From Alphaproteobacteria bacterium (GTDB taxonomy: Bacteria; Pseudomonadota; Alphaproteobacteria; UBA828): a stretch of 64,000 bases of DNA. Location: the NCBI GenBank assembly GCA_963422645.2, contig CAXXVO010000005.1, positions 128,001 to 192,000 of the forward strand, written 5' to 3'. The stretch's first letter is position 1; the number at the start of each line of letters is the position of its first letter. Below the pieces are notes generated by a model. That model did no database searches, was not told the DNA's origin, and saw nothing but the letters and a program-made list of their open reading frames with translations. Of this stretch, positions 1,672-30,240 are shown piece by piece. The position numbers and the translations under genes were made by a program.

Positions 1672-1949
1672 GGCCAAGTTAAGGGTCTTTGTACGGCATT
1701 CCGTCACGCCCCTATCACGGCGTTACCGCGCGGGCGGACAGAACAGGCCCCAAACCGAGGTCGTGTCCCCAAGCGTGGAGTTAGATACAAACAAAACAGT
1801 CATGGTCCCCGCGGTTCTGAGCCACCCCGTGGCATGAAACAGGAGCGGTTCGGCTGACGTTTTCCTTGCGCTTGCACCCATTTGCCGTGTCAGGATGGGT
1901 ATTGGCGGAGGTGGGGACGTGTGAGCGTCGTTATATCGGTGACGTAGTT

Positions 1950-2062
1950 CCCGATGACAAAACTGCTTCCGGCGGCCGGCTCCGCACCCCGTATTGTACC
2001 CGGCCCGTGGCCGTGGACGCGCGGCAAATTGCACCGCACCCGCTCGTCGGATGCGTGTTCTT
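1950..2062 (+). ncRNA. Putative bridge RNA core (target and donor binding loops) of IS110 element A
   Basis: Candidate guides TGACAAAA (1955-1962), GTATT (1991-1995), CGCGGCAAA (2020-2028) and TGTT (2056-2059); each pair flanks a hairpin. True RNA boundaries unknown. Confidence 0.5.
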
Positions 2063-2148
2063 CCGACCGCTGTCCCCGCCTCCACCGTGGCGATGCCACG
2101 GCGTGATCGTACGCCGCCGTGGCGAGAGCGCAAATGAGGAGGAAGGCG

Positions 2149-3399
2149 ATGAAGACGGAAGGCTTGCACGTCGTCCGGCCGCGCGCGGCGGGTCTGGACG
2201 TGCACAAGATGGAGATCACCGCGACGGTTCGCCTCTGTGAGGGCGAGGGTGAGCCGGTGGTGGAGACGCGCTGCTTCGGCACGCTGCCGAGCGGTCTGGA
2301 GGAGATGGTCGCGTGGCTGACCGGTCACGGCGTCGAGGCTGCGGTGATGGAAGGGACCGGGGTCTACTGGCAGGCGCCCTTCGCGGCCCTGGAGGCGGCC
2401 GGGCTCGAGGCGATCCTGGTGCATGCGCGTCAGGTGAAGCAGTTGAAGGGGCGCAAGACCGACGTGGCGGACAGCGTGTGGCTGGCCTGCGTGTGCCAGT
2501 TCGGGCTCTGCACGCCTTCCCACGTTCCGCCTGAGCCGTTCCGGGAGCTGCGCGCACTGAGCCGCCAGCGCCGCGTCCTGGTCAGGCAGCGCTCCGCCGT
2601 GCGCAACCGCGTGCAGAAGATCATCGACCGCGCCGGTGCGCGCATCGGCGGCATCCTCTCCGACGTCTTCGGCGTCAACGGCCGGAAGATCCTCGACGGC
2701 CTGGCGCAGGGGACGGCGCGCGAGGTCATCCTCGCCTCGCTCACCAGCCACGTTGCGAACAAGCTGGAGGGGCTCGGCGAGGCGCTCACCCTGAGCCTGG
2801 GCGACAACGACCGCTTCATGCTCAACGACCTGCTGGAGGAGCATGACGCGCTTGAGGCGCGCATCGCGTCCTACACCAGGAAGATCGACGGGCAGATGAC
2901 ACCGTGGGAGGAGCAGCTCCGTCTGCTGACCACCATCCCCGGCATCGACCGCACCGCCGCCTCGACCATCCTCATCGAGATCGGCCCCGACATCGGCGTG
3001 TTCGCCTCCAAGGAGCACTTCGCCGCCTGGGCCGGGCTCTGCCCCGGCAACAACGAGAGCGGGGGCAAGCGCCGCAACGCACGCACCCGCATGGGCTCCA
3101 AGACCCTGCGCGCCTGCCTCGTCGAGTGTGCCCACGGCGCGGCCCGAACCAAGGGGTGCCAGTTCGAGGCTCATCACCGCGCCCTCGCCGCCCGGCGCGG
3201 CTACAAGCGCGCCATCGTCGCCGGCGCTCACAAGATGCTGCGCATCATCTATGTGGTGCTCAAGACCGGCAGGCCCTACTACGACCGCACGGCCGACTAC
3301 GACGCTCTGATGGTCAAGCGCAACGCTCCTCGGTGGATCCGCATGCTCCGCCGCTACGGCTACATCGAGCCCGTAGGCGCGGAACTCAAGGCCGCCTGA
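2149..3399 (+). CDS. IS110-family recombinase/transposase
   Basis: DEDD motifs GLDVHK, MEGTG, KTDVADS; C-terminal GLCPGNNESGG; RBS GAGGAGG before ATG 2149. Confidence 0.95.
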   Translation: MKTEGLHVVRPRAAGLDVHKMEITATVRLCEGEGEPVVETRCFGTLPSGLEEMVAWLTGHGVEAAVMEGTGVYWQAPFAALEAAGLEAILVHARQVKQLKGRKTDVADSVWLACVCQFGLCTPSHVPPEPFRELRALSRQRRVLVRQRSAVRNRVQKIIDRAGARIGGILSDVFGVNGRKILDGLAQGTAREVILASLTSHVANKLEGLGEALTLSLGDNDRFMLNDLLEEHDALEARIASYTRKIDGQMTPWEEQLRLLTTIPGIDRTAASTILIEIGPDIGVFASKEHFAAWAGLCPGNNESGGKRRNARTRMGSKTLRACLVECAHGAARTKGCQFEAHHRALAARRGYKRAIVAGAHKMLRIIYVVLKTGRPYYDRTADYDALMVKRNAPRWIRMLRRYGYIEPVGAELKAA

Positions 3400-3725
3400 G
3401 CGGCCCGCATCTCGTCAGCCGGCTACGCGGGACCGCTTCGGACCACATCGGGGAAGTCCACCGCTCGTCTCCGCCGCGCCGACCCTGGCGGTCTCAGCCA
3501 ACGCCGTGACCTCGGGGTTGGAGCGTCACCGCGCGTCCCTCGCCAGAATCTGTTTCACGGCAAAATAGTTGGAGTGAGTCACGGTAACTACCCAGGTACC
3601 CCAATCCTGAGTTGAGGACGGTGATTATGGCGGCGGCCGCGGCCTGGTTCTGCCACCGCGATTGGTTCTTGACCTCATAGAGTTGCGGGACTATGGACTG
3701 CTCTCTCGCGTGACGGGAGCGGTCC

Positions 3726-11895: not shown

Positions 11896-13076
11896 GGTGC
11901 TTCTCCTATGCCCATTCGCTTCGACAGGAGACCATGGGGCCGTTCTCGCTCCAATGGCAAGAGTCGCATATTGGGCGGCCTCGCTTCGAGCGGAACTTCG
12001 CCGATGTAGCCGGCGGATATCACTCGACGTAGCCGGTGATTGTTACCCAAATGGCCACCCCGGAGCGAAGCGACGCGATCAAGCCCGGCCCTCAAGTCCG
12101 GCAACACGGCGCGGGTGCCACGTATCCAGTCCCACTGGAGGGAGGACCCGTTCCGCGCCGCTCTGGCGCCGGTTCGACGCCCTTCCAGCACGGAGTCCGC
12201 CATGCTCGATGCCCACCAGGCGGTGGACGCTCGCGCCCGTCGTTCCCGCCTCAGTCTGTTCCGACGTCTATGATCGCAGAGATAGACTGCCCGACCCTTT
12301 CGGCCGCTGCCTCGATCTCGCGATCTCCCAGATGGGCATAGCGCAGCGTCGTGCGCACATCGGAATGACCGAGCAGCCGGGAGACGACCGGAACCGGCAC
12401 GCCGTTCATCACCGCGTGGCTGGCATGGGAGTGGCGGAGGTCGTGAAGGCGAACGTCCTCAATGCCGGCTTCCCGCCGGGCGCGATCCCAGAACGCGAGG
12501 TTGCAGCTGCGGGGCCGGGCGGGATCTCTCGGGGACGGAAAGACGAACGGGCTTCCACCGCGCGGCCGGCGTTCGAGAATGCGCCGGGCCGGAGTGTTGA
12601 GGGGAACGATCCTTGGCCCGGTCTTGCCGTCGGCAAGGACCAGCCTGTCGCGATCGACTTCCGACCAGCGCAGCCGGAGGATTTCGCTCCTGCGGCATCC
12701 GGTCAGAAGCAGGAGCCGGATGATATTTGCCTGCTCACGCCTACTGTCGCGGGTCTGCCTGTCCAGGACGTTGTGGAGCCGGGATATCTCCTCCCGTGAC
12801 AGAAAGTGCGTGAGCACCCGTCTTGGGTTCCGTTCCACGGCCCGCGCCGGGTTGGTGCCGAGGTGGCCGCGGGCGAACGTGAAGTTGATGATCTGGGTGA
12901 GTAGATCGAGCGCGTGATTGGCGTTGCCGGGCGCGGTCCGGCTGAACCGGTCGAACCATCGCCCGACCTGGGCCTAGGCAATGCGATCGAGCGGCTTGGA
13001 GCCGAAGGCGGGCAGCAGCTGGCGGTCGAGCAGGGACTGGACGCCCTTTCTCGTGGACGGCTTGTATCCGTCAAAA

Positions 13077-14844
13077 CAGTCATGGTCCCCGCGGTTCTGA
13101 GCCACCCCGTGGCATGAAACAGGAGCGGTTCGGCTGACGTTTTCCTTGCGCTTGCACCCATTTGCCGTGTCAGGATGGGTATTGGCGGAGGTGGGGACGT
13201 GTGAGCGTCGTTATATCGGTGACGTAGTTCCCGATGACAAAACTGCTTCCGGCGGCCGGCTCCGCACCCCGTATTGTACCCGGCCCGTGGCCGTGGACGC
13301 GCGGCAAATTGCACCGCACCCGCTCGTCGGATGCGTGTTCTTCCGACCGCTGTCCCCGCCTCCACCGTGGCGATGCCACGGCGTGATCGTACGCCGCCGT
13401 GGCGAGAGCGCAAATGAGGAGGAAGGCGATGAAGACGGAAGGCTTGCACGTCGTCCGGCCGCGCGCGGCGGGTCTGGACGTGCACAAGATGGAGATCACC
13501 GCGACGGTTCGCCTCTGTGAGGGCGAGGGTGAGCCGGTGGTGGAGACGCGCTGCTTCGGCACGCTGCCGAGCGGTCTGGAGGAGATGGTCGCGTGGCTGA
13601 CCGGTCACGGCGTCGAGGCTGCGGTGATGGAAGGGACCGGGGTCTACTGGCAGGCGCCCTTCGCGGCCCTGGAGGCGGCCGGGCTCGAGGCGATCCTGGT
13701 GCATGCGCGTCAGGTGAAGCAGTTGAAGGGGCGCAAGACCGACGTGGCGGACAGCGTGTGGCTGGCCTGCGTGTGCCAGTTCGGGCTCTGCACGCCTTCC
13801 CACGTTCCGCCTGAGCCGTTCCGGGAGCTGCGCGCACTGAGCCGCCAGCGCCGCGTCCTGGTCAGGCAGCGCTCCGCCGTGCGCAACCGCGTGCAGAAGA
13901 TCATCGACCGCGCCGGTGCGCGCATCGGCGGCATCCTCTCCGACGTCTTCGGCGTCAACGGCCGGAAGATCCTCGACGGCCTGGCGCAGGGGACGGCGCG
14001 CGAGGTCATCCTCGCCTCGCTCACCAGCCACGTTGCGAACAAGCTGGAGGGGCTCGGCGAGGCGCTCACCCTGAGCCTGGGCGACAACGACCGCTTCATG
14101 CTCAACGACCTGCTGGAGGAGCATGACGCGCTTGAGGCGCGCATCGCGTCCTACACCAGGAAGATCGACGGGCAGATGACACCGTGGGAGGAGCAGCTCC
14201 GTCTGCTGACCACCATCCCCGGCATCGACCGCACCGCCGCCTCGACCATCCTCATCGAGATCGGCCCCGACATCGGCGTGTTCGCCTCCAAGGAGCACTT
14301 CGCCGCCTGGGCCGGGCTCTGCCCCGGCAACAACGAGAGCGGGGGCAAGCGCCGCAACGCACGCACCCGCATGGGCTCCAAGACCCTGCGCGCCTGCCTC
14401 GTCGAGTGTGCCCACGGCGCGGCCCGAACCAAGGGGTGCCAGTTCGAGGCTCATCACCGCGCCCTCGCCGCCCGGCGCGGCTACAAGCGCGCCATCGTCG
14501 CCGGCGCTCACAAGATGCTGCGCATCATCTATGTGGTGCTCAAGACCGGCAGGCCCTACTACGACCGCACGGCCGACTACGACGCTCTGATGGTCAAGCG
14601 CAACGCTCCTCGGTGGATCCGCATGCTCCGCCGCTACGGCTACATCGAGCCCGTAGGCGCGGAACTCAAGGCCGCCTGAGCGGCCCGCATCTCGTCAGCC
14701 GGCTACGCGGGACCGCTTCGGACCACATCGGGGAAGTCCACCGCTCGTCTCCGCCGCGCCGACCCTGGCGGTCTCAGCCAACGCCGTGACCTCGGGGTTG
14801 GAGCGTCACCGCGCGTCCCTCGCCAGAATCTGTTTCACGGCAAA
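13077..14844 (+). mobile_element. IS110-family element A, copy 2
   Basis: Identical to 1797-3564; inserted in the integrase gene. Confidence 0.92.
13429..14679 (+). CDS. IS110-family recombinase/transposase
   Basis: Same protein as 2149-3399. Confidence 0.95.
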   Translation: MKTEGLHVVRPRAAGLDVHKMEITATVRLCEGEGEPVVETRCFGTLPSGLEEMVAWLTGHGVEAAVMEGTGVYWQAPFAALEAAGLEAILVHARQVKQLKGRKTDVADSVWLACVCQFGLCTPSHVPPEPFRELRALSRQRRVLVRQRSAVRNRVQKIIDRAGARIGGILSDVFGVNGRKILDGLAQGTAREVILASLTSHVANKLEGLGEALTLSLGDNDRFMLNDLLEEHDALEARIASYTRKIDGQMTPWEEQLRLLTTIPGIDRTAASTILIEIGPDIGVFASKEHFAAWAGLCPGNNESGGKRRNARTRMGSKTLRACLVECAHGAARTKGCQFEAHHRALAARRGYKRAIVAGAHKMLRIIYVVLKTGRPYYDRTADYDALMVKRNAPRWIRMLRRYGYIEPVGAELKAA

Positions 14845-19341: not shown

Positions 19342-21220
19342 GTAACTGCCCAGGTTCTTGCTGTGAAAATTCTCTGGGATTCGGCACAACGCTACCCACG
19401 CGACGCCCGTGTGCTCCTCTGTGGTCGCCGGGTTTCACAGCTCACGATGCCCCTCTTGCGGACTGCGACCGGTAAGCTACCCCGATGTGGCCCGAAGTCC
19501 GCCCGCGCGACGGGCACCGATTTTCATTCTATGGGGTGGTCCAGCACGGCGTCGACCATGATCGTTTATGAGAATGGCTCCGCTGTTGGAGAACCCGTGC
19601 CAGGTGAGCTTACGCGCACTTGACGGTGGCGATGAGCCGATCCGATGGGCTGGTCAGGGCTTCGATGATATTCCAGCCCTGCTTTCTGGCGGTGGTGATG
19701 ACGCTGCGCAGGATGGCGAAGTTCTCGGCCCCCTGCGCGGACCGGAAGCCCCCGGAGATCTTCTGGCGCAGCTTCATCATCCGAAGGTCGCGCTCGGCCT
19801 CGTTGTTCGTGAACCCGACCTCGAGGTCGATCAGGAACCGGAGCACCGCGCATTTGTGGTCGCGCAGCCTCAAGGCCAGATTGTGACCGATCCTTCGCTT
19901 CCGGCGCTTCTTCCTCTTGCCAGGCGAGAACGGTGGTTGGCTCTCGTGAAAGGCCAGCGCATCGGCGATGATCTCGTCGTATCGGCGCTCGATCAGCGCC
20001 ACAAGCCTCGCCGGAACGGCGATATCCTTGTCCAGCGCGATGCGGGCGGCGCGATTGGCTCGGCGCAGGAGCTGCTGCATCCGCCGGGCCCAAGCCTCCC
20101 CTTCGATGTCCACCAGCGCCTGCAACTCCCGCAGGTGATGGGCGTTGCACAGGCCGTGCTCCACCCCTTCCATCGCGAAGTACGGCTTCCAGTGATCGTG
20201 CACGACGATGCCGGAGACACCCGAGAGCAGGGCGCCGCGCTTGCCGCTGACCCGGTACGCCGCCAGCAGCGGCGTGCAGATCACATGAAGCCACTGCGTC
20301 TGACCGCCGATCCGCAAGCCGGTCTCGTCCATGTGTTTCACCCGCGCCGTGCCCGCCGCCAGGTCCTGTATGTGCAAGGCCGCGTCCCGCAGCCGCTCGG
20401 CCGCCCTCTCGCTCATCGTCGCCAACGTCGCAGCCGTCACCGGCGCGCCGAAGAGCTCGGCCATCACCTGCGACAGCCGATCCTCCGGCAGGAAGTGAGC
20501 GTGCTGAAGGTAGACCGCCACCCCGGCAATGCGCGGGCCGTACTGCACCGGCGCCGACACCCCGTCGGGGAACGCCGCCCGGGTCACCGTCCCGCAATGC
20601 CCGCAGCACTTGGCATGCGCCCGGTGCTCGGTCACCTCCAGGGGGCTCGGCTCGGGCAGATCGAACACCTGGCGGGCGACGGGCGTTCCCGCCCTGGCCG
20701 CGTCCGAAAGCGGCGAACCGCATCCCTTGCAGGAAGCCGGGACGTGATCCTTCACCCGATCCGGGTGATCGGCGCGGCGCAGCGTCTTGCCCTTGTGGCC
20801 GGGCTGGCCACCGGGCTTGCGGCCCGATTTGCCGCGCAGGCTTCGGGTTCGCCGCTTCGAATTCGGCTTCCTCAGCCCATCGCTCGAAGGCGGCTTGCCG
20901 CTGTTGAGGCCGAGACGGCGCTCCAACTCCTCGATGCGCTCGACGAGACGCGCGACTTGCTCTTCCAGCCGCGCGTTCTGCTGCCGAAGCCAGGCATTTT
21001 CCTCCCGAAGCCGGGCGTTCTCCTCCTCCAGGCGGGCGATCTTCTGCGCGGGCGTTTCGGGCGCTGCTCCCGTCGAAGGGCCGCGCGGCGACTCGGGATT
21101 GCTCATGTCGTTGTTGAGTCATTTCCCGAAATTCCCGTCAAGCCCTTTCCACCAACTCCGAACGAGAAACGCCTCAATCCACTGGCCCAAAATGACAAAT
21201 CAGACGACCTGGGCAGTTAC
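19342..21220 (-). mobile_element. IS66-family (ISBst12-like) element without passenger gene
   Basis: Inverted ends GTAACTGCCCAGGT; 8-bp target duplication TTCTTTCT at 19334-19341 and 21221-21228. Confidence 0.95.
19610..21106 (-). CDS. IS66-family transposase
   Basis: KPPSSD, GGQPGHKG, HMDETG, CNAHHLREL, FTNNEAERDLR. Confidence 0.93.
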   Translation of the reverse strand: MSNPESPRGPSTGAAPETPAQKIARLEEENARLREENAWLRQQNARLEEQVARLVERIEELERRLGLNSGKPPSSDGLRKPNSKRRTRSLRGKSGRKPGGQPGHKGKTLRRADHPDRVKDHVPASCKGCGSPLSDAARAGTPVARQVFDLPEPSPLEVTEHRAHAKCCGHCGTVTRAAFPDGVSAPVQYGPRIAGVAVYLQHAHFLPEDRLSQVMAELFGAPVTAATLATMSERAAERLRDAALHIQDLAAGTARVKHMDETGLRIGGQTQWLHVICTPLLAAYRVSGKRGALLSGVSGIVVHDHWKPYFAMEGVEHGLCNAHHLRELQALVDIEGEAWARRMQQLLRRANRAARIALDKDIAVPARLVALIERRYDEIIADALAFHESQPPFSPGKRKKRRKRRIGHNLALRLRDHKCAVLRFLIDLEVGFTNNEAERDLRMMKLRQKISGGFRSAQGAENFAILRSVITTARKQGWNIIEALTSPSDRLIATVKCA

Positions 21221-21473
21221 TTCTTTCTTCATCAGCAAACGAAGCGGACGCAATCAGCACGCTGCCCAGAATTGTCGCCGATGCGACCGTGGCTCTAATC
21301 AAATGCTTCATTGGTTCCTCCCAGTTGACATTCGACCTCCGAACGTATGTGGCGTGAGGTCCAATTGCTCTCGCATTCAGCCATAGAGGAAAGGGGGGGG
21401 ACTCCCCACCATTTGTAAAGAGGGCTCCGGCACGCGCGAGTAGGCGTGCTTGGCACTCTGTGTGGTTTCTGCG

Positions 21474-22727
21474 TCACGCTGCATGGGCTTGTCTCGCGAA
21501 GGCGGGATTGAAGACGGTCTGGTTTTCGAGCATCGCGCAGGCGACGCCGAGCAGGCGGTCGGCGACGCCGCGAAGTGCACGAGCGTGGCCGTGGCCGCGG
21601 GCACGCAGCGCGGCGTATTTCGCCTTGCTGACGGGGTCGTGCTGTATCGCGACCCCGGCCCAGTGGTAGACGGCGTCCTGGAGCCGGTTGTGAGACGCGA
21701 GACGTCGTATGACGATGAGCGACTTGCCGGACCGCTTGGTCACGGGAGCGACGCCGGACAGGCATCGCAAGGCCTGGTAGTCTCGCCGGCGCAGAGGATC
21801 GTGTGCTTCTGCGAGCAGCGTGGCGAGGACGATCCTGCCGACGCCGGGAAGCGAGCTCAGGATTTCCACGTCACGCTGCGCATTTGTTCCCGGCTCGTCC
21901 TCCGGGGAGGCTGCCGATCGGGACAGCGTTGCGCTCAGACGGTCGAGTTCGCCATAGGCCTTGGCGAGCTGCTGCGCGATGACGGCAAGCTGCGAGAAGA
22001 CGACCTCGATATGAGCGACTGCGGCCTCGGTCGTGCCGGGTGCGACGGACACCGCCTGCTCGCGCATGATCCGGAGCGCGGTTTCGGCATCGATCCGGCG
22101 CACCCGATGGCGCTTCAGGAGCTTGGCGACGGTGGCGGCGCGGACGCGCTGCGCCTTTGCGGGCGTCGGCGCAAGGCACCAGAGCTCGCGAACCCAGGCC
22201 CTGGTGAGATCGCTTTCGACCTTGAGGAGCTGCGGATAGTAGCGCCAGAGCTGCTGGCGGGCCCGGTTCACCAGCCGGGTCCTGTCGCGGGTCAGGTCGT
22301 TGGCGATCCGCGACCACTCGCGCAGCTCGACGATCTCCGGCGCTGCCGGGTCCAGGCGCCGGAACGCATGGCCATCGGTCCGCAGGGCATCGGCGAGCAC
22401 GCGGGCGTCGCGGCGATCGTCCTTGGCGCCGGCCGGCGAGAAGCGGTCGCGGAAGCGGTCGAGCTGCTTCGGATTCACGGAGTGGACCGTGAAGCCGCGT
22501 TCCATCATGGTCTCGACGACGGGTCCGTGCGGGATCTCGATGGCGACCCCGATCGCGTGCGGGTCGACGCCCGCCCTGGCGAGGATCCAGGCCGCCATCT
22601 CTGCGAGACCGGCTCCGCCGTGACTGAAGGCCCGCTCGGCCGACACCTCGCCAGCGCTGTCGACAACGCAGACCTGGTGGGTCTCCGAGCCCCAGTCGAT
22701 CCCCGCAAAATACTCAAGCATGTGCAT
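21474..22727 (-). CDS. IS110-family recombinase/transposase
   Basis: AGIDWG, AIE, KDDRRDA, LSSLPGVG and GVAPVTKRSGK motifs. Confidence 0.93.
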   Translation of the reverse strand: MHMLEYFAGIDWGSETHQVCVVDSAGEVSAERAFSHGGAGLAEMAAWILARAGVDPHAIGVAIEIPHGPVVETMMERGFTVHSVNPKQLDRFRDRFSPAGAKDDRRDARVLADALRTDGHAFRRLDPAAPEIVELREWSRIANDLTRDRTRLVNRARQQLWRYYPQLLKVESDLTRAWVRELWCLAPTPAKAQRVRAATVAKLLKRHRVRRIDAETALRIMREQAVSVAPGTTEAAVAHIEVVFSQLAVIAQQLAKAYGELDRLSATLSRSAASPEDEPGTNAQRDVEILSSLPGVGRIVLATLLAEAHDPLRRRDYQALRCLSGVAPVTKRSGKSLIVIRRLASHNRLQDAVYHWAGVAIQHDPVSKAKYAALRARGHGHARALRGVADRLLGVACAMLENQTVFNPAFARQAHAA

Positions 22728-22769
22728 GGCATTCCCTTCGCGCCCTTGTGCAAACGGACCGCCACGATG

Positions 22770-22890
22770 CCTTCCCGTCCCTGTACTGGCGCTCAAGGCG
22801 CAAACTCCCCACCAGGCGTCCATCGTGGCCAGGGACCGAGGCACAGGTCCCCCCCAGGTGCTCTCGGCGCAGGGGGCGCTCGGTTGCTCT
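22770..22890 (-). ncRNA. Bridge RNA core of IS110 element B
   Basis: 11-nt match to the element end (22804-22814 = 21401-21411), 8-nt complement of the other junction (22779-22786), and C/G-run guides at 22872-22876 and 22849-22855. Boundaries approximate. Confidence 0.78.
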
Positions 22891-23185
22891 CGATCCCTTG
22901 GCCCGTCCCGTCCGCAATGGACGGGACTGCCACGATGGCAGGGAGCTTCGATGAGCTGCACCTGGCCACTGGCTTCCCCTCCGCGCTACGCGCTCCGGCG
23001 AAGCCAGTGGCCAGCCAGCACTGCTGCGATGAAGGTCGAGGAAATGGCTAAGCAACGTCTGCACCCCGAAACGGCTGAAGCGTCATGAGAGGTACAGGGG
23101 GGCAAGTTCGCGAGAACAGATCACGACGAGGTGCCGTCCAGTCGGCGGTCCTCGTCTCGGGCAATTCTCCTCAGCCAAGCCGGCG

Positions 23186-24180
23186 TGTCGACGGCGGAGG
23201 AATAATGCACCACGCTGTGGGACACGACCCGGTCCGGTCGCGGCGACGCAAAATTTCGCCACCCATGGCCCCTTGTCGGTAGTGTCGAGGGGCGGGGGAT
23301 GTACGGCGTGGAGATCTATGCGGCGGTTCGTCTGGCGGTTGTCGATGAGGGTCTGAGCCATCACGAGGCGGCGCGGCGGTTCGGCATCGACCGGCGGACG
23401 GTGAAGAAGATGCTGAGCTATTCGGCGCCGCCGGGCTACCGCCGGACCAAGCCGGACGGGTTCACCGGCATCATCGATGCGATCCTTGTCGCGCGGGACG
23501 CGCGCGGAGCGCACGATGAGGCGGACAGGGATCCGGATGTGCCGCGCAAGCAGCGGCACACGGCGCATCGGATCTTCGAGCGACTGCGGGACGAGCACGG
23601 GTTCACGGGTAGCTACACGATCGTGAAGGACTATGTGCGGTCCCGCCGGCAGTCGACGCGGGAGGCCTTCGTTCCGCTGCATCACCCGCCGGGCCATGCC
23701 CAGGTCGACTTCGGCGAGGCGGTGGTGAAGTTGCGGGGGCAACGCGAGAAGGTCGCCTTCTTCTGCCTGATCCTGCCCCATTCCAATGTCTGGTTCGTGA
23801 AGGCCTATCCCCGGGAGACGAACGAGGCCTTCCTCGACGGCCATGTCAGCGCCTTCGCCTTCCTCGGCGGGGTCCCCCGATCAATCCTGTACGACAACAC
23901 GACGCTCGCGGTGGTGCGGATCCTGGGCGACGGCACCCGCCGGCGCACTCGTGCGTTCACGCATCTGCAGTCGCACTACCTGTTCCGCGACCGCTTCGGC
24001 CGGCCCGGCAAGGGCAACGATAAGGGCAAGGTCGAGGCTCTGGTGAAGATGGCGCGCCGCAAGTTCCTCGTGCCGATCCCGAAGGTGCACGACCTGGACG
24101 TTCTGAACGAGCGGCTGGCGGCACGTTGCCTGGAGCGTCTCGATGTGCTGGAGCAAGGCGAGCGGGCGGCGGCGCTGTTG
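23186..24180 (+). pseudogene. IS21-family left end plus truncated istA
   Basis: TGT end at 23186; ORF from 23299 with AQVDFG, LYDN and NDKGKVE; C-terminus replaced by IS3 sequence. Confidence 0.8.
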
Positions 24181-24590
24181 GCCGAGGCGGCCGGCATGAT
24201 CCAGGAATACGAGGCCCGGATCACGGCGCTCGAGCGGCTGGTCGGCAAACAGGCCCTGGAGATCGAGTTCCTAAGGGGGGCTCAAAGGCAAGGACGGCGG
24301 TCGGGAAGCGCGCCCATGTCCGTCATCACTGGCCCGAAGAAGGGCTCTCCATCGCCGAAGGATGCCGACTGATGGGGATAGCGCGCTCCACCTATTACAG
24401 GGAACCGGAGGGATCGGCCGACGACACCGCCCTGGTAGAGGCCATGCACGCGATCAAGGACGAGTTGGAAGCCTATGGCTGGCGGCGCATGCAGGTGGCG
24501 CTCAGGCATCGGGGCTGGATCGTGAACCACAAGAAGATCCAACGCCCGATGCGCGAGCATGCCATGCAGCCGCCGCGCCGGCGCCGATTC
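24181..24590 (+). pseudogene. IS3-family fragment (orfA end and orfB start)
   Basis: LERLVGKQALEIEFL; MGIARSTYY...YGWRRM...VNHKKIQR. Confidence 0.8.
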
Positions 24591-29604: not shown

Positions 29605-29728
29605 CCTACGACAAGGCGAGGGGGGCCGAGATCGTGTCCCTGGATCTGCCGAACGGGGTGCTGGGGGCGCCGATGACCTACCTGCTCGACGGCGTGCAGC
29701 ACATCGCGTTGACCGTCGGGGGGGGGGG
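29600..29728 (+). pseudogene. C-terminal fragment of a PQQ-dependent dehydrogenase-like protein
   Basis: VAYDKARG...LDLP...GAPMTYLLDGVQHIALTVGG. Confidence 0.55.
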
Positions 29729-30240
29729 ACTCCCCACCATTTGTAAAGAGGGCTCCGGCACGCGCGAGTAGGCGTGCTTGGCACTCTGTGTGGTTTCTGC
29801 GTCACGCTGCATGGGCTTGTCTCGCGAAGGCGGGATTGAAGACGGTCTGGTTTTCGAGCATCGCGCAGGCAACGCCGAGCAGGCGGTCGGCGACGCCGCG
29901 AAGTGCACGAGCGTGGCCGTGGCCGCGGGCACGCAGCGCGGCGTATTTCGCCTTGCTGACGGGGTCGTGCTGTATCGCGACCCCGGCCCAGTGGTAGACG
30001 GCGTCCTGGAGCCGGTTGTGAGACGCGAGACGTCGTATGACGATGAGCGACTTGCCGGACCGCTTGGTCACGGGAGCGACGCCGGACAGGCATCGCAAGG
30101 CCTGGTAGTCTCGCCGGCGCAGAGGATCGTGTGCTTCTGCGAGCAGCGTGGCGAGGACGATCCTGCCGACGCCGGGAAGCGAGCTCAGGATTTCCACGTC
30201 ACGCTGCGCATTTGTTCCCGGCTCGTCCTCCGGGGAGGCT
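29729..30240 (-). mobile_element. IS110 element B, truncated copy (3' 512 bp)
   Basis: Matches 21401-21912 with one substitution seen; preceded by an 11-G run; cut off exactly at the TGT end at 30241. Confidence 0.9.

Follow-up and report, generated by a model that had tools for sequence, protein, structure and literature searches.

The window, a stretch of 64,000 nucleotides analysed as a whole, contains an insertion sequence of the IS110 family whose ends abut runs of C. Guide-directed insertion into such runs, with CC as the core dinucleotide, is the best explanation for this element and is very probably correct. The anatomy of the element, an empty insertion site, the covariation of guides with flanking DNA, a conserved RNA fold, and an intact enzyme are demonstrated by the analysis. 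A first-pass annotation of the same DNA had proposed a target loop set for C/G homopolymers; the empty site, all junctions of the element, the guide/flank covariation, and the conserved two-loop structure bear this proposal out.

The element and its recombinase

The complete IS110-family element (21401..23096, minus strand) is 1,696 bp long, its limits being set by comparison of copies and by the empty site. The 5' end, at 23096, reads TGTACC, and the element finishes with GGGGAGT, the last base of which is 21401 (right end GGTGGGGAGT 3'). Terminal inverted repeats are absent (TGTACCTCTC at one end versus GGTGGGGAGT at the other), and duplication is limited to a short core, with CC on both sides in 63/63 relatives.

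The recombinase gene (21474..22727, minus strand) encodes 417 residues with no internal stop. The protein contains a RuvC-like DEDD domain (PF01548; 3.6e-35, 121.5 bits versus a cut-off of 29) and a C-terminal Tnp domain (PF02371; 7.4e-16, 58.8 bits versus a cut-off of 21.3), and among solved structures it matches the IS621 transposase 8wt6 (E = 1.5e-6). In the phmmer alignment, residues D11, D104, and D107 align with catalytic Asp residues of IS621, and S333 (within RSGKS) aligns with the serine nucleophile, numbered S243 in chain 8wt6_A and S241 in the native protein. The catalytic Glu is probably E64 (within AIE), where the phmmer alignment is shifted by 3 residues. The window element is an ordinary-looking member of the family (IS110 subgroup) and has every testable family feature except the CT core.

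The source genome, G000, holds four related places: the full copy, two truncated copies, and one remnant. On contig C16 is a 3'-truncated copy that is 100% identical to the full one. The window itself holds a 5'-truncated second copy (29729..30240, minus strand), also 100% identical, which retains the last ~512 bp of the element and lies next to a C11 run at 29718-29728. Contig C5 retains just a 30-bp right-end remnant. A megablast search of a plasmid database with the whole element gave zero matches, and an Rfam scan of 20500-24500 matched no relevant family.

The full copy sits between two other multi-copy elements, at 19610-21106 (minus strand) and 23299-24372 (plus strand). One of the neighbouring ORFs resembles an IS66-type transposase by eye only; the other has a weak rve-integrase match in the Pfam scan (30.6 bits, short of the cut-off of 32.6). 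Both flanks are also found elsewhere in the source genome and in related genomes. The window also carries a different IS110-family element, element A, of ~1,774 bp, at 1791-3564 and about 13071-14844. About 48 identical hits to its recombinase domain are present in the source genome, where units follow one another head to tail in tandem arrays (period 1,768-1,769 bp), with 5 copies on contig C11 (G000:C11:48110-56953), 3 on C10, and 3 on C16. Its units join through ...CACGGCAAA(A)CAGTCATGG...

A bridge RNA in the 5' leader

As judged from its conserved fold, the 5' leader of the element encodes a bridge RNA built on a two-internal-loop plan. RNAalifold on 25 sequences gives 36 consensus pairs, 21 of them with compensatory changes, and places two internal loops between conserved stems; all four guides are located within these loops. 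The minus-strand motifs listed by the first-pass annotation (GCCCCC, G7, an 11-mer, a GCGC hairpin, and an 8-mer) were all found at the positions given for them.

The module of the target-binding loop (22827..22904, minus strand) consists of a basal stem (22903-22889 with 22840-22827) that has many compensatory pairs among the 25 relatives, an internal loop, and a distal hairpin (22871-22859). Within the loop, the left target guide (LTG) AGCGCCCCC occupies 22872..22880 (minus strand) and includes the GCCCCC at 22877-22872; natural sites match just its 3' (G/A)CCCCC part. The right target guide (RTG), GGGGGGG (22849..22855, minus strand), comprises 5 nt for the right target and GG for the core, and it covaries with the right flank across 13 + 9 RTG types. 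It is followed by AC (22847..22848, minus strand), which is complementary to the GT that ends the element and, from the description of IS621 in Hiraizumi 2024 (PMC11208158), is a candidate handshake guide of the target loop.

The module of the donor-binding loop (22764..22826, minus strand) has a basal stem (22826-22821 with 22769-22764) and a distal GCGC/GCGC hairpin (22801-22789), which correspond to pairs 94-99/153-159 and 120-123/130-133 of the RNAalifold alignment. The guides of this loop match the element's own ends, as had been proposed. The left donor guide (LDG; 22804..22814, minus strand) is the 11-mer TGGTGGGGAGT, identical to the right end at 21401-21411. It occurs 3 times in the window, the third place being the right end of the truncated copy (29729-29739); in shuffles 0.03 occurrences are expected, and 3 were reached in 0/100. 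The LDG is followed by UU, which is able to wobble-pair with the GG opposite a CC core. The right donor guide (RDG; 22778..22786, minus strand) reads GUACAGG + GA, and GUACAGG is the reverse complement of CC+TGTAC. The 8-mer GTACAGGG at 22786-22779 is likewise the reverse complement of CCCTGTAC at 23099-23092, so that the complementarity to the near junction claimed earlier is present. The GA is, from the same description of IS621, a candidate handshake guide of the donor loop, and its G is able to pair with the last C of the left target.

Identity of the LDG to the far end over 11 nt, although true of the window element, does not extend to its relatives: the match is 10 nt in L032 and L034 and 9 nt in L031 and L033, and it is these 9 nt (GTGGGGAGT) that match the right end in every close relative. 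Variants of the LDG track variants of the right end, e.g. GTAGGAGGT and GCTAGGAGGT. The donor guides had been described as long; with 9 conserved nt the LDG equals the 7+2 of IS621 as described, and that description was not upheld.

Upstream of the two modules, a long hairpin (22962..23014, minus strand) has the 15-bp perfect stem that was noted near 22962-23015, with 23014-23000 pairing with 22976-22962. It lies in a ~135-nt segment of the leader that is missing from distant relatives, whose leaders are 226-252 nt. The stems differ yet remain complementary in L032, L033, L048, L050, L053, and L076, and in L048, L050, and L053 the stem is wholly different but still complementary; the loop, CCGGAGCGCG(T/G)AGCGCGGAGG, is conserved. 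A short hairpin, GUCCCGUCC-AUUGC-GGACGGGAC (22905..22927, minus strand), is directly 5' of the target loop.

Insertion sites in C runs

Read on the element strand, the left flank of the full copy is C6 (23097..23102, minus strand), whose final CC would be the left copy of the core, and the right flank is C8 (21393..21400, minus strand), whose initial CC would be the right copy. On the plus strand these are the G runs reported earlier: 8 G at 21393-21400 and 6 G at 23097-23102, with 11 G at 29718-29728 beside the truncated copy. All junctions of the window element lie in C runs. In the source genome they are C6 left and C8 right for the full copy, C5 left for the C16 copy, C11 right for the truncated copy in the window, and C7 right for the C5 remnant. 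In the sister species G009, one copy (contig C9) has C5 left and C11 right, and a second (contig C3) has C7 left. An internally deleted copy in G027 lies between C6 and C7. This derivative, L030 (G027:C11:182949-183465), joins the first ~128 nt of the element to the last ~394 nt; it has neither the bridge RNA loops nor an intact recombinase gene, yet occupies a C6/C7 site, possibly as a non-autonomous copy mobilised in trans.

The orthologous empty site in the sister species (G009:C2) reads gaactcg-C10-ttttctc, a pure C10, where the filled site in the window reads gaacttg-C6[IS]C8-tttcctc. In addition, a low-depth contig of the public run X18 joins both flanks across a G run. It is highly improbable that the C runs did not exist before insertion and are instead the element's own, or were made on insertion by a long duplication or by slippage at the ends. 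The filled allele does have 6+8 = 14 C versus 10 in the empty ortholog of the other species, and the G000 ortholog of the C5/C11 insertion site on G009:C9 is without any C run: this place (C6:330980-331080), ~30 nt upstream of a conserved start codon, reads ..GAGACCTCGCCGTT.. Against this idea, empty alleles consist of an uninterrupted run without the element (G009:C2 and the X18 contig), run lengths vary between copies that are 100% identical, a changed RTG is accompanied by a matching change of flank in relatives, and unoccupied copies of a repeat targeted in genome G041 already hold C5-C8. The empty site already largely refutes the making of the runs by insertion. For the copies on G009:C3 and in G027, the flanks gave no orthologous site in G000.

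With C runs as pre-existing targets, the size of the site can be predicted. The minimal site is C10, since the C5 of the LTG and the G7 of the RTG share two bases (5+7-2). In G7-type copies for which both junctions are available, left plus right minus 2 gives 10-14, with the minimum of exactly 10 in L031, L048, L100, and L220. The run is split into 4-7 C on the left and 7-12 C on the right, a variability that follows if the register is free in runs longer than 10. The first-pass annotation had envisaged that slippage of register would change tract length. The variable split agrees with the first half of this idea; a change of length caused by the element is unsupported. Bridge recombination is expected to conserve tract length because the donor guides anchor the crossover at the element ends, and thus the tract is predicted to be split, not lengthened or shortened. 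The comparison of empty and filled tracts that had been called for consists of a single pair, 10 versus 6+8, from two different species, and assembled homopolymer lengths are possibly wrong by a base or two.

C/G runs of at least 8 bases number 34 in the source genome. Five of these are of at least 10 bases, one of which flanks the truncated copy; the other four are unoccupied, and copy number is low. The activity of the element may be weak.

A GT core with a C6-TGT-C8 target was also considered, prompted by the extension of GGGGGGGAC and CCCCCUG into the element ends; it was rejected, the empty site being pure C10. Genomic C5TGTC5 repeats were likewise rejected as insertion sites.

Two repeats with C runs were observed in G000. 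The repeat ccacctCCCCCTGTCCCCCtcccccc, which is not an insertion site of the window element, has 11 hits, one of them a shorter variant (C10:378043-378055, C10:394118-394130, C9:77227-77239, C23:4424-4436, plus 7 more), and its G-rich strand carries four G runs. Eight copies of gagagggttcca-C8-attcgcgtcg (C8:261899-261906, C8:355455, C8:685382, C18:283966, C19:140711, C12:49650, C15:41535, and C15:383186) have a C8 run at a fixed place in another repeat, which is possibly the end of a further mobile element.

Covariation of guides and flanks

Comparison of sequences indicates that, in close relatives, a change of one or two letters in the guide goes together with a matching change of the insertion site. 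Genome contigs were scanned and yielded 189 relatives, 80 of them retained; TGTACC lies upstream of the gene in 73/80 of these loci, which represent the wider clade. Whole-element matches account for 22/80: four at 91-94% identity and 18 copies in one chromosome at 87%. The leaders of these 22 align base for base with that of the window element, and the leader segment that reads GGGGGGGAC in the window element changes in step with the right flank. Thus, RTG GGGGGGG is found with a C7 flank in L031 and L033, GGGGAGG with a CCTCCCC flank in L032, and GGTGAGG with a CCTCACC flank in 18/18 copies. The earlier annotation had named copies outside G/C runs as evidence that would count against its proposal; in such copies the RTG is changed to match.

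The target loop could be parsed in 71/74, and the right end was also located, by its motif, in 63 copies with 13 RTG heptamers. In 44 of the 63, the reverse complement of the RTG is exactly the copy's own 7-nt right flank; there is 1 mismatch in 15 copies, 2 in 2, and 4 in 2. At the five non-core positions, cognate RTG/flank pairs differ by a mean of 0.43 and non-cognate pairs by 3.14. An independent set came from metagenome contigs, in which a search with a right-end 18-mer yielded 82 junctions in 80 loci, 41 of which have at least 1,500 nt upstream. The RTG was located in 14 of these, and it matches the flank exactly in 13/14. Runs of 7-9 C make up 13/78 of the metagenome right flanks with at least 12 nt. 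For the clade this gives a simple and testable rule: reverse-complementing the 7 nt before AC yields the right flank.

The left side fits less well, which counts against guide-directed insertion. Natural left flanks fit just the last 5-6 of the 9 nt of the LTG: the last 5 nt match the left flank in 39/62, all 9 nt in 1/62, and in the window element 3-4 of the 7 non-core positions match. Also against it, the flanks of L074 and L083 (..GGTCCC on the left, CCACTTG on the right) fit neither of their own guides (LTG AAGTCACCC, and an RTG predicting CCGAAGG); the remaining four copies of the same element fit but for a single mismatch. In L051, L053, and L056, all in one genome, the G runs at the RTG position are longer and of differing lengths (~G9-G13), and L056 adjoins C10TC; the tract length of the guide itself seems to vary.

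The shortness of the LTG match is also a point for the idea that a protein, or an unusual structure of G/C-tract DNA, picks the site and that the complementarity of the leader is incidental. G/C tracts do have an unusual helix geometry. However, more than 20 RTG heptamers each predict their own flank, and single and double substitutions in elements otherwise 87-93% identical retarget as predicted, so that selection of the site in this way is scarcely credible.

The target of the GGTGAGG variant is a repeat with 271 copies in its genome (G041). Among unoccupied copies of the repeat, the run before TCACCC is C5 in 20/30, C6 in 5, C7 in 2, and C8 in 3. Occupied copies have C3-C6 on the left and CC on the right, as expected for a 2-nt core. 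The elements with G7, GGGGAGG, and GGTGAGG guides, 87-93% identical, form a natural retargeting series with differing target classes and copy numbers.

Core dinucleotide and proposed mechanism

CC ends 63/63 left flanks and starts 63/63 right flanks and is therefore the simplest core. AC follows the RTG in 55/63 relatives, and GT is present at the right end in 63/63. CC as the core and the roles of the handshake guides are what we infer from these patterns and do not belong to what the analysis demonstrates.

A CT core, as in IS621, would leave the element and its target the same and would partition the donor as ...GGAGTC-CT-GTACC...; at a poly-C target the second core base would then be mismatched, leaving a heteroduplex to be resolved by replication. 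Whichever partition is used, the joined ends read GTCCTGTAC and contain CT, and the sequence after the LTG reads CU. Many non-homopolymer flanks start with CCT, leaving CC and CT indistinguishable there, and relatives of IS621 almost always have T at core position 9 in the account of Hiraizumi 2024 (PMC11208158). The LDG is followed by UU and not CC, which speaks against a CC core. This reading is nevertheless quite unlikely. It requires a core mismatch at homopolymer sites, where no CT core dinucleotide is found, and it is CC that is common to both flanks in 63/63 copies; the third base is not T in target types C7, CCA.., CCC.., and CCG.. Under a CT core, moreover, the base beside the RTG would pair before exchange, a state reported to block recombination (Hiraizumi 2024, PMC11208158), and the LDG fits CC better. 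Durrant 2024 (PMC11208160) describes the filtering of guides for a CT core. On the published descriptions, CT is a feature of IS621 and its near relatives and not of the whole family.

In the general plan of a bridge RNA, every guide contains the core; the left guides read like the top strand, to which the right guides are complementary (Durrant 2024, PMC11208160). Handshake guides are described as pairing, once strands have been exchanged, with positions 6-7 of the other DNA and as having to stay unpaired with their own DNA until then (Hiraizumi 2024, PMC11208158). Applied to guide-directed insertion with a CC core, the donor loop (LDG GUGGGGAGU, RDG GUACAGG) would read the joined ends of a circle, ...GGGGAGT-CC-TGTACC... 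In the target loop, the (G/A)CCCCC of the LTG would pair with the bottom strand on the left and the GGGGGGG of the RTG with the top strand on the right, with the CC core common to both. After exchange of the top strand, the AC beside the RTG would pair with the GT at the end of the element, acting as a handshake guide. The recombinase, with its DEDD and Ser residues, would swap strands at the core, leaving the element within the run and flanked by CC at both ends; where a run exceeds 10, free register would produce a variable left/right split.

Loop opening, expression, and activity

With a homopolymer target, LTG and RTG are complementary to each other. In a protein-free fold of the target-loop module, the G run of the RTG is taken up in pairs with the C5 of the LTG, and the MFE is -45.8 kcal/mol versus -30.6 kcal/mol when the guides are forced open. 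The predicted cost of opening, ~15 kcal/mol, counts against guide-directed insertion into C runs; for the GGTGAGG variant it is just 3.9 kcal/mol.

The right end contains a -35-like hexamer, TTTACA (21414..21419, minus strand), to which a promoter role is assigned by analogy with IS621. If the ends were joined into a circle through a CC core, 17 nt would separate this hexamer from TACCTC at the left end (23094-23089). Among 31 distinct relatives, TT(G/T)ACA is found at right-end positions -19 to -14 and TACC at left-end positions 3-6. Joined through CC, these would become a -35 box and a -10-like box, an arrangement that IS621 also has (Durrant 2024, PMC11208160), and they may drive expression from the junction. 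Scanned for promoters and terminators, the integrated copy gave one weak site, which lies outside the element. From an RNA library, a 151-nt contig spans 22758-22908 with a single difference, the contig alone being no proof of transcription; two such library contig sets, X15 and X16, resemble one data set filed twice. Public runs were read as assembled contigs, and parts of the element that were left uncovered were given no weight.

The window element is complete and, to judge from its sequence, probably active today. It could instead be a recent but inactive relic, whose bridge RNA is unexpressed or locked by LTG/RTG pairing. For this speak the inventory of one full copy, two truncated copies, and one remnant, the four long runs left unoccupied, the predicted opening cost of 15 kcal/mol, and the integrated copy's want of an upstream -35 box. 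The intact ORF with its catalytic residues and the 100% identity of the copies speak against it, as does the retention of the G7 guide in at least 11 related elements of several phyla, which argues that the guide works. On balance a relic is rather unlikely.

Distribution in the clade and implications

In a recombinase tree of 31 rows, the window element falls in a clade of 11 rows with 100/100 support, 8 of which have poly-G RTGs. Poly-G RTGs also occur in L055, L086, L100, and L077, and the well-supported branches require at least 5 changes of RTG state. From this pattern, homopolymer targeting is either old or recurrent in the clade, and its recurrence is supported by the sequences compared; the GGGGAGG and GGTGAGG RTGs look derived. 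The hosts of relatives, as labelled, include Alpha- and Gammaproteobacteria and Chloroflexota, Acidobacteriota, and Binatota MAGs. That IS110 elements with a CC core form a clade which spans phyla and keeps its bridge RNA aimed at G/C tracts of at least 10 bases is a tentative and somewhat doubtful extension of these observations.

If this extension is correct, tract length would set the availability of sites, with slippage opening a site at 10 C or more and closing it below. The element would be coupled to the most mutable sequences of the genome, often just upstream of genes; both sites examined precede a start codon, by ~80 nt and ~30 nt. For the recombinase this would mean keeping apart two target guides that otherwise pair with each other, at a predicted cost of 15 kcal/mol. 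One or two substitutions in the guide would suffice to move an element to a REP-like repeat (271 copies), where there are at least 18 element copies. As for the window element itself, a natural bridge RNA that addresses low-complexity DNA with self-pairing guides would bear on the design rules of programmable recombinases. Finally, the long G/C runs beside IS ends in these genomes would be explained, which is relevant to assembly and annotation.

Comparison with known IS110 systems

Among the matches listed by a full-text literature search, judged by titles and abstracts, there was no paper on an IS110 element or bridge RNA aimed at homopolymers; the supplementary target tables of Durrant 2024 may list such guides. 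The word 'homopolymer' is absent from the text of that paper (PMC11208160).

The window element shares much with IS621 as described in Durrant 2024 (PMC11208160) and Hiraizumi 2024 (PMC11208158). Both have a DEDD RuvC-like domain and a Tnp domain with a serine, and a guide RNA in the 5' non-coding end with two internal loops and the core inside the guides. Both also have 2 nt in the handshake position after each right guide, and the -35-like hexamer in the right end has a counterpart in the -35 box of IS621. The proteins, however, are only remotely similar (E = 1.5e-6), CC and not CT is the simplest core, and the target is a homopolymer, which makes the two target guides mutually complementary. 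The IS621 bridge RNA is 177 nt, whereas the leader of the window element is 369 nt and has the extra long hairpin. The RTG is 7 nt, versus 4 in IS621.

ISPpu10 and ISPa11 are IS110 elements that target REP sequences (Durrant 2024, PMC11208160; for ISPpu10, 10.64898/2026.03.19.712850). Like them, the sister variant with RTG GGTGAGG inserts at the edge of a REP-like repeat, with at least 18 copies among the loci retained. Unlike them, the window element, with its G7 guide, uses rare C runs and has a low copy number. Elements of the IS1111 group, which use a seekRNA, have a recombinase of the same family and follow the same RNA-guided logic. In that group the guide RNA lies 3' of the recombinase gene, whereas in the window element it lies 5' of the gene.
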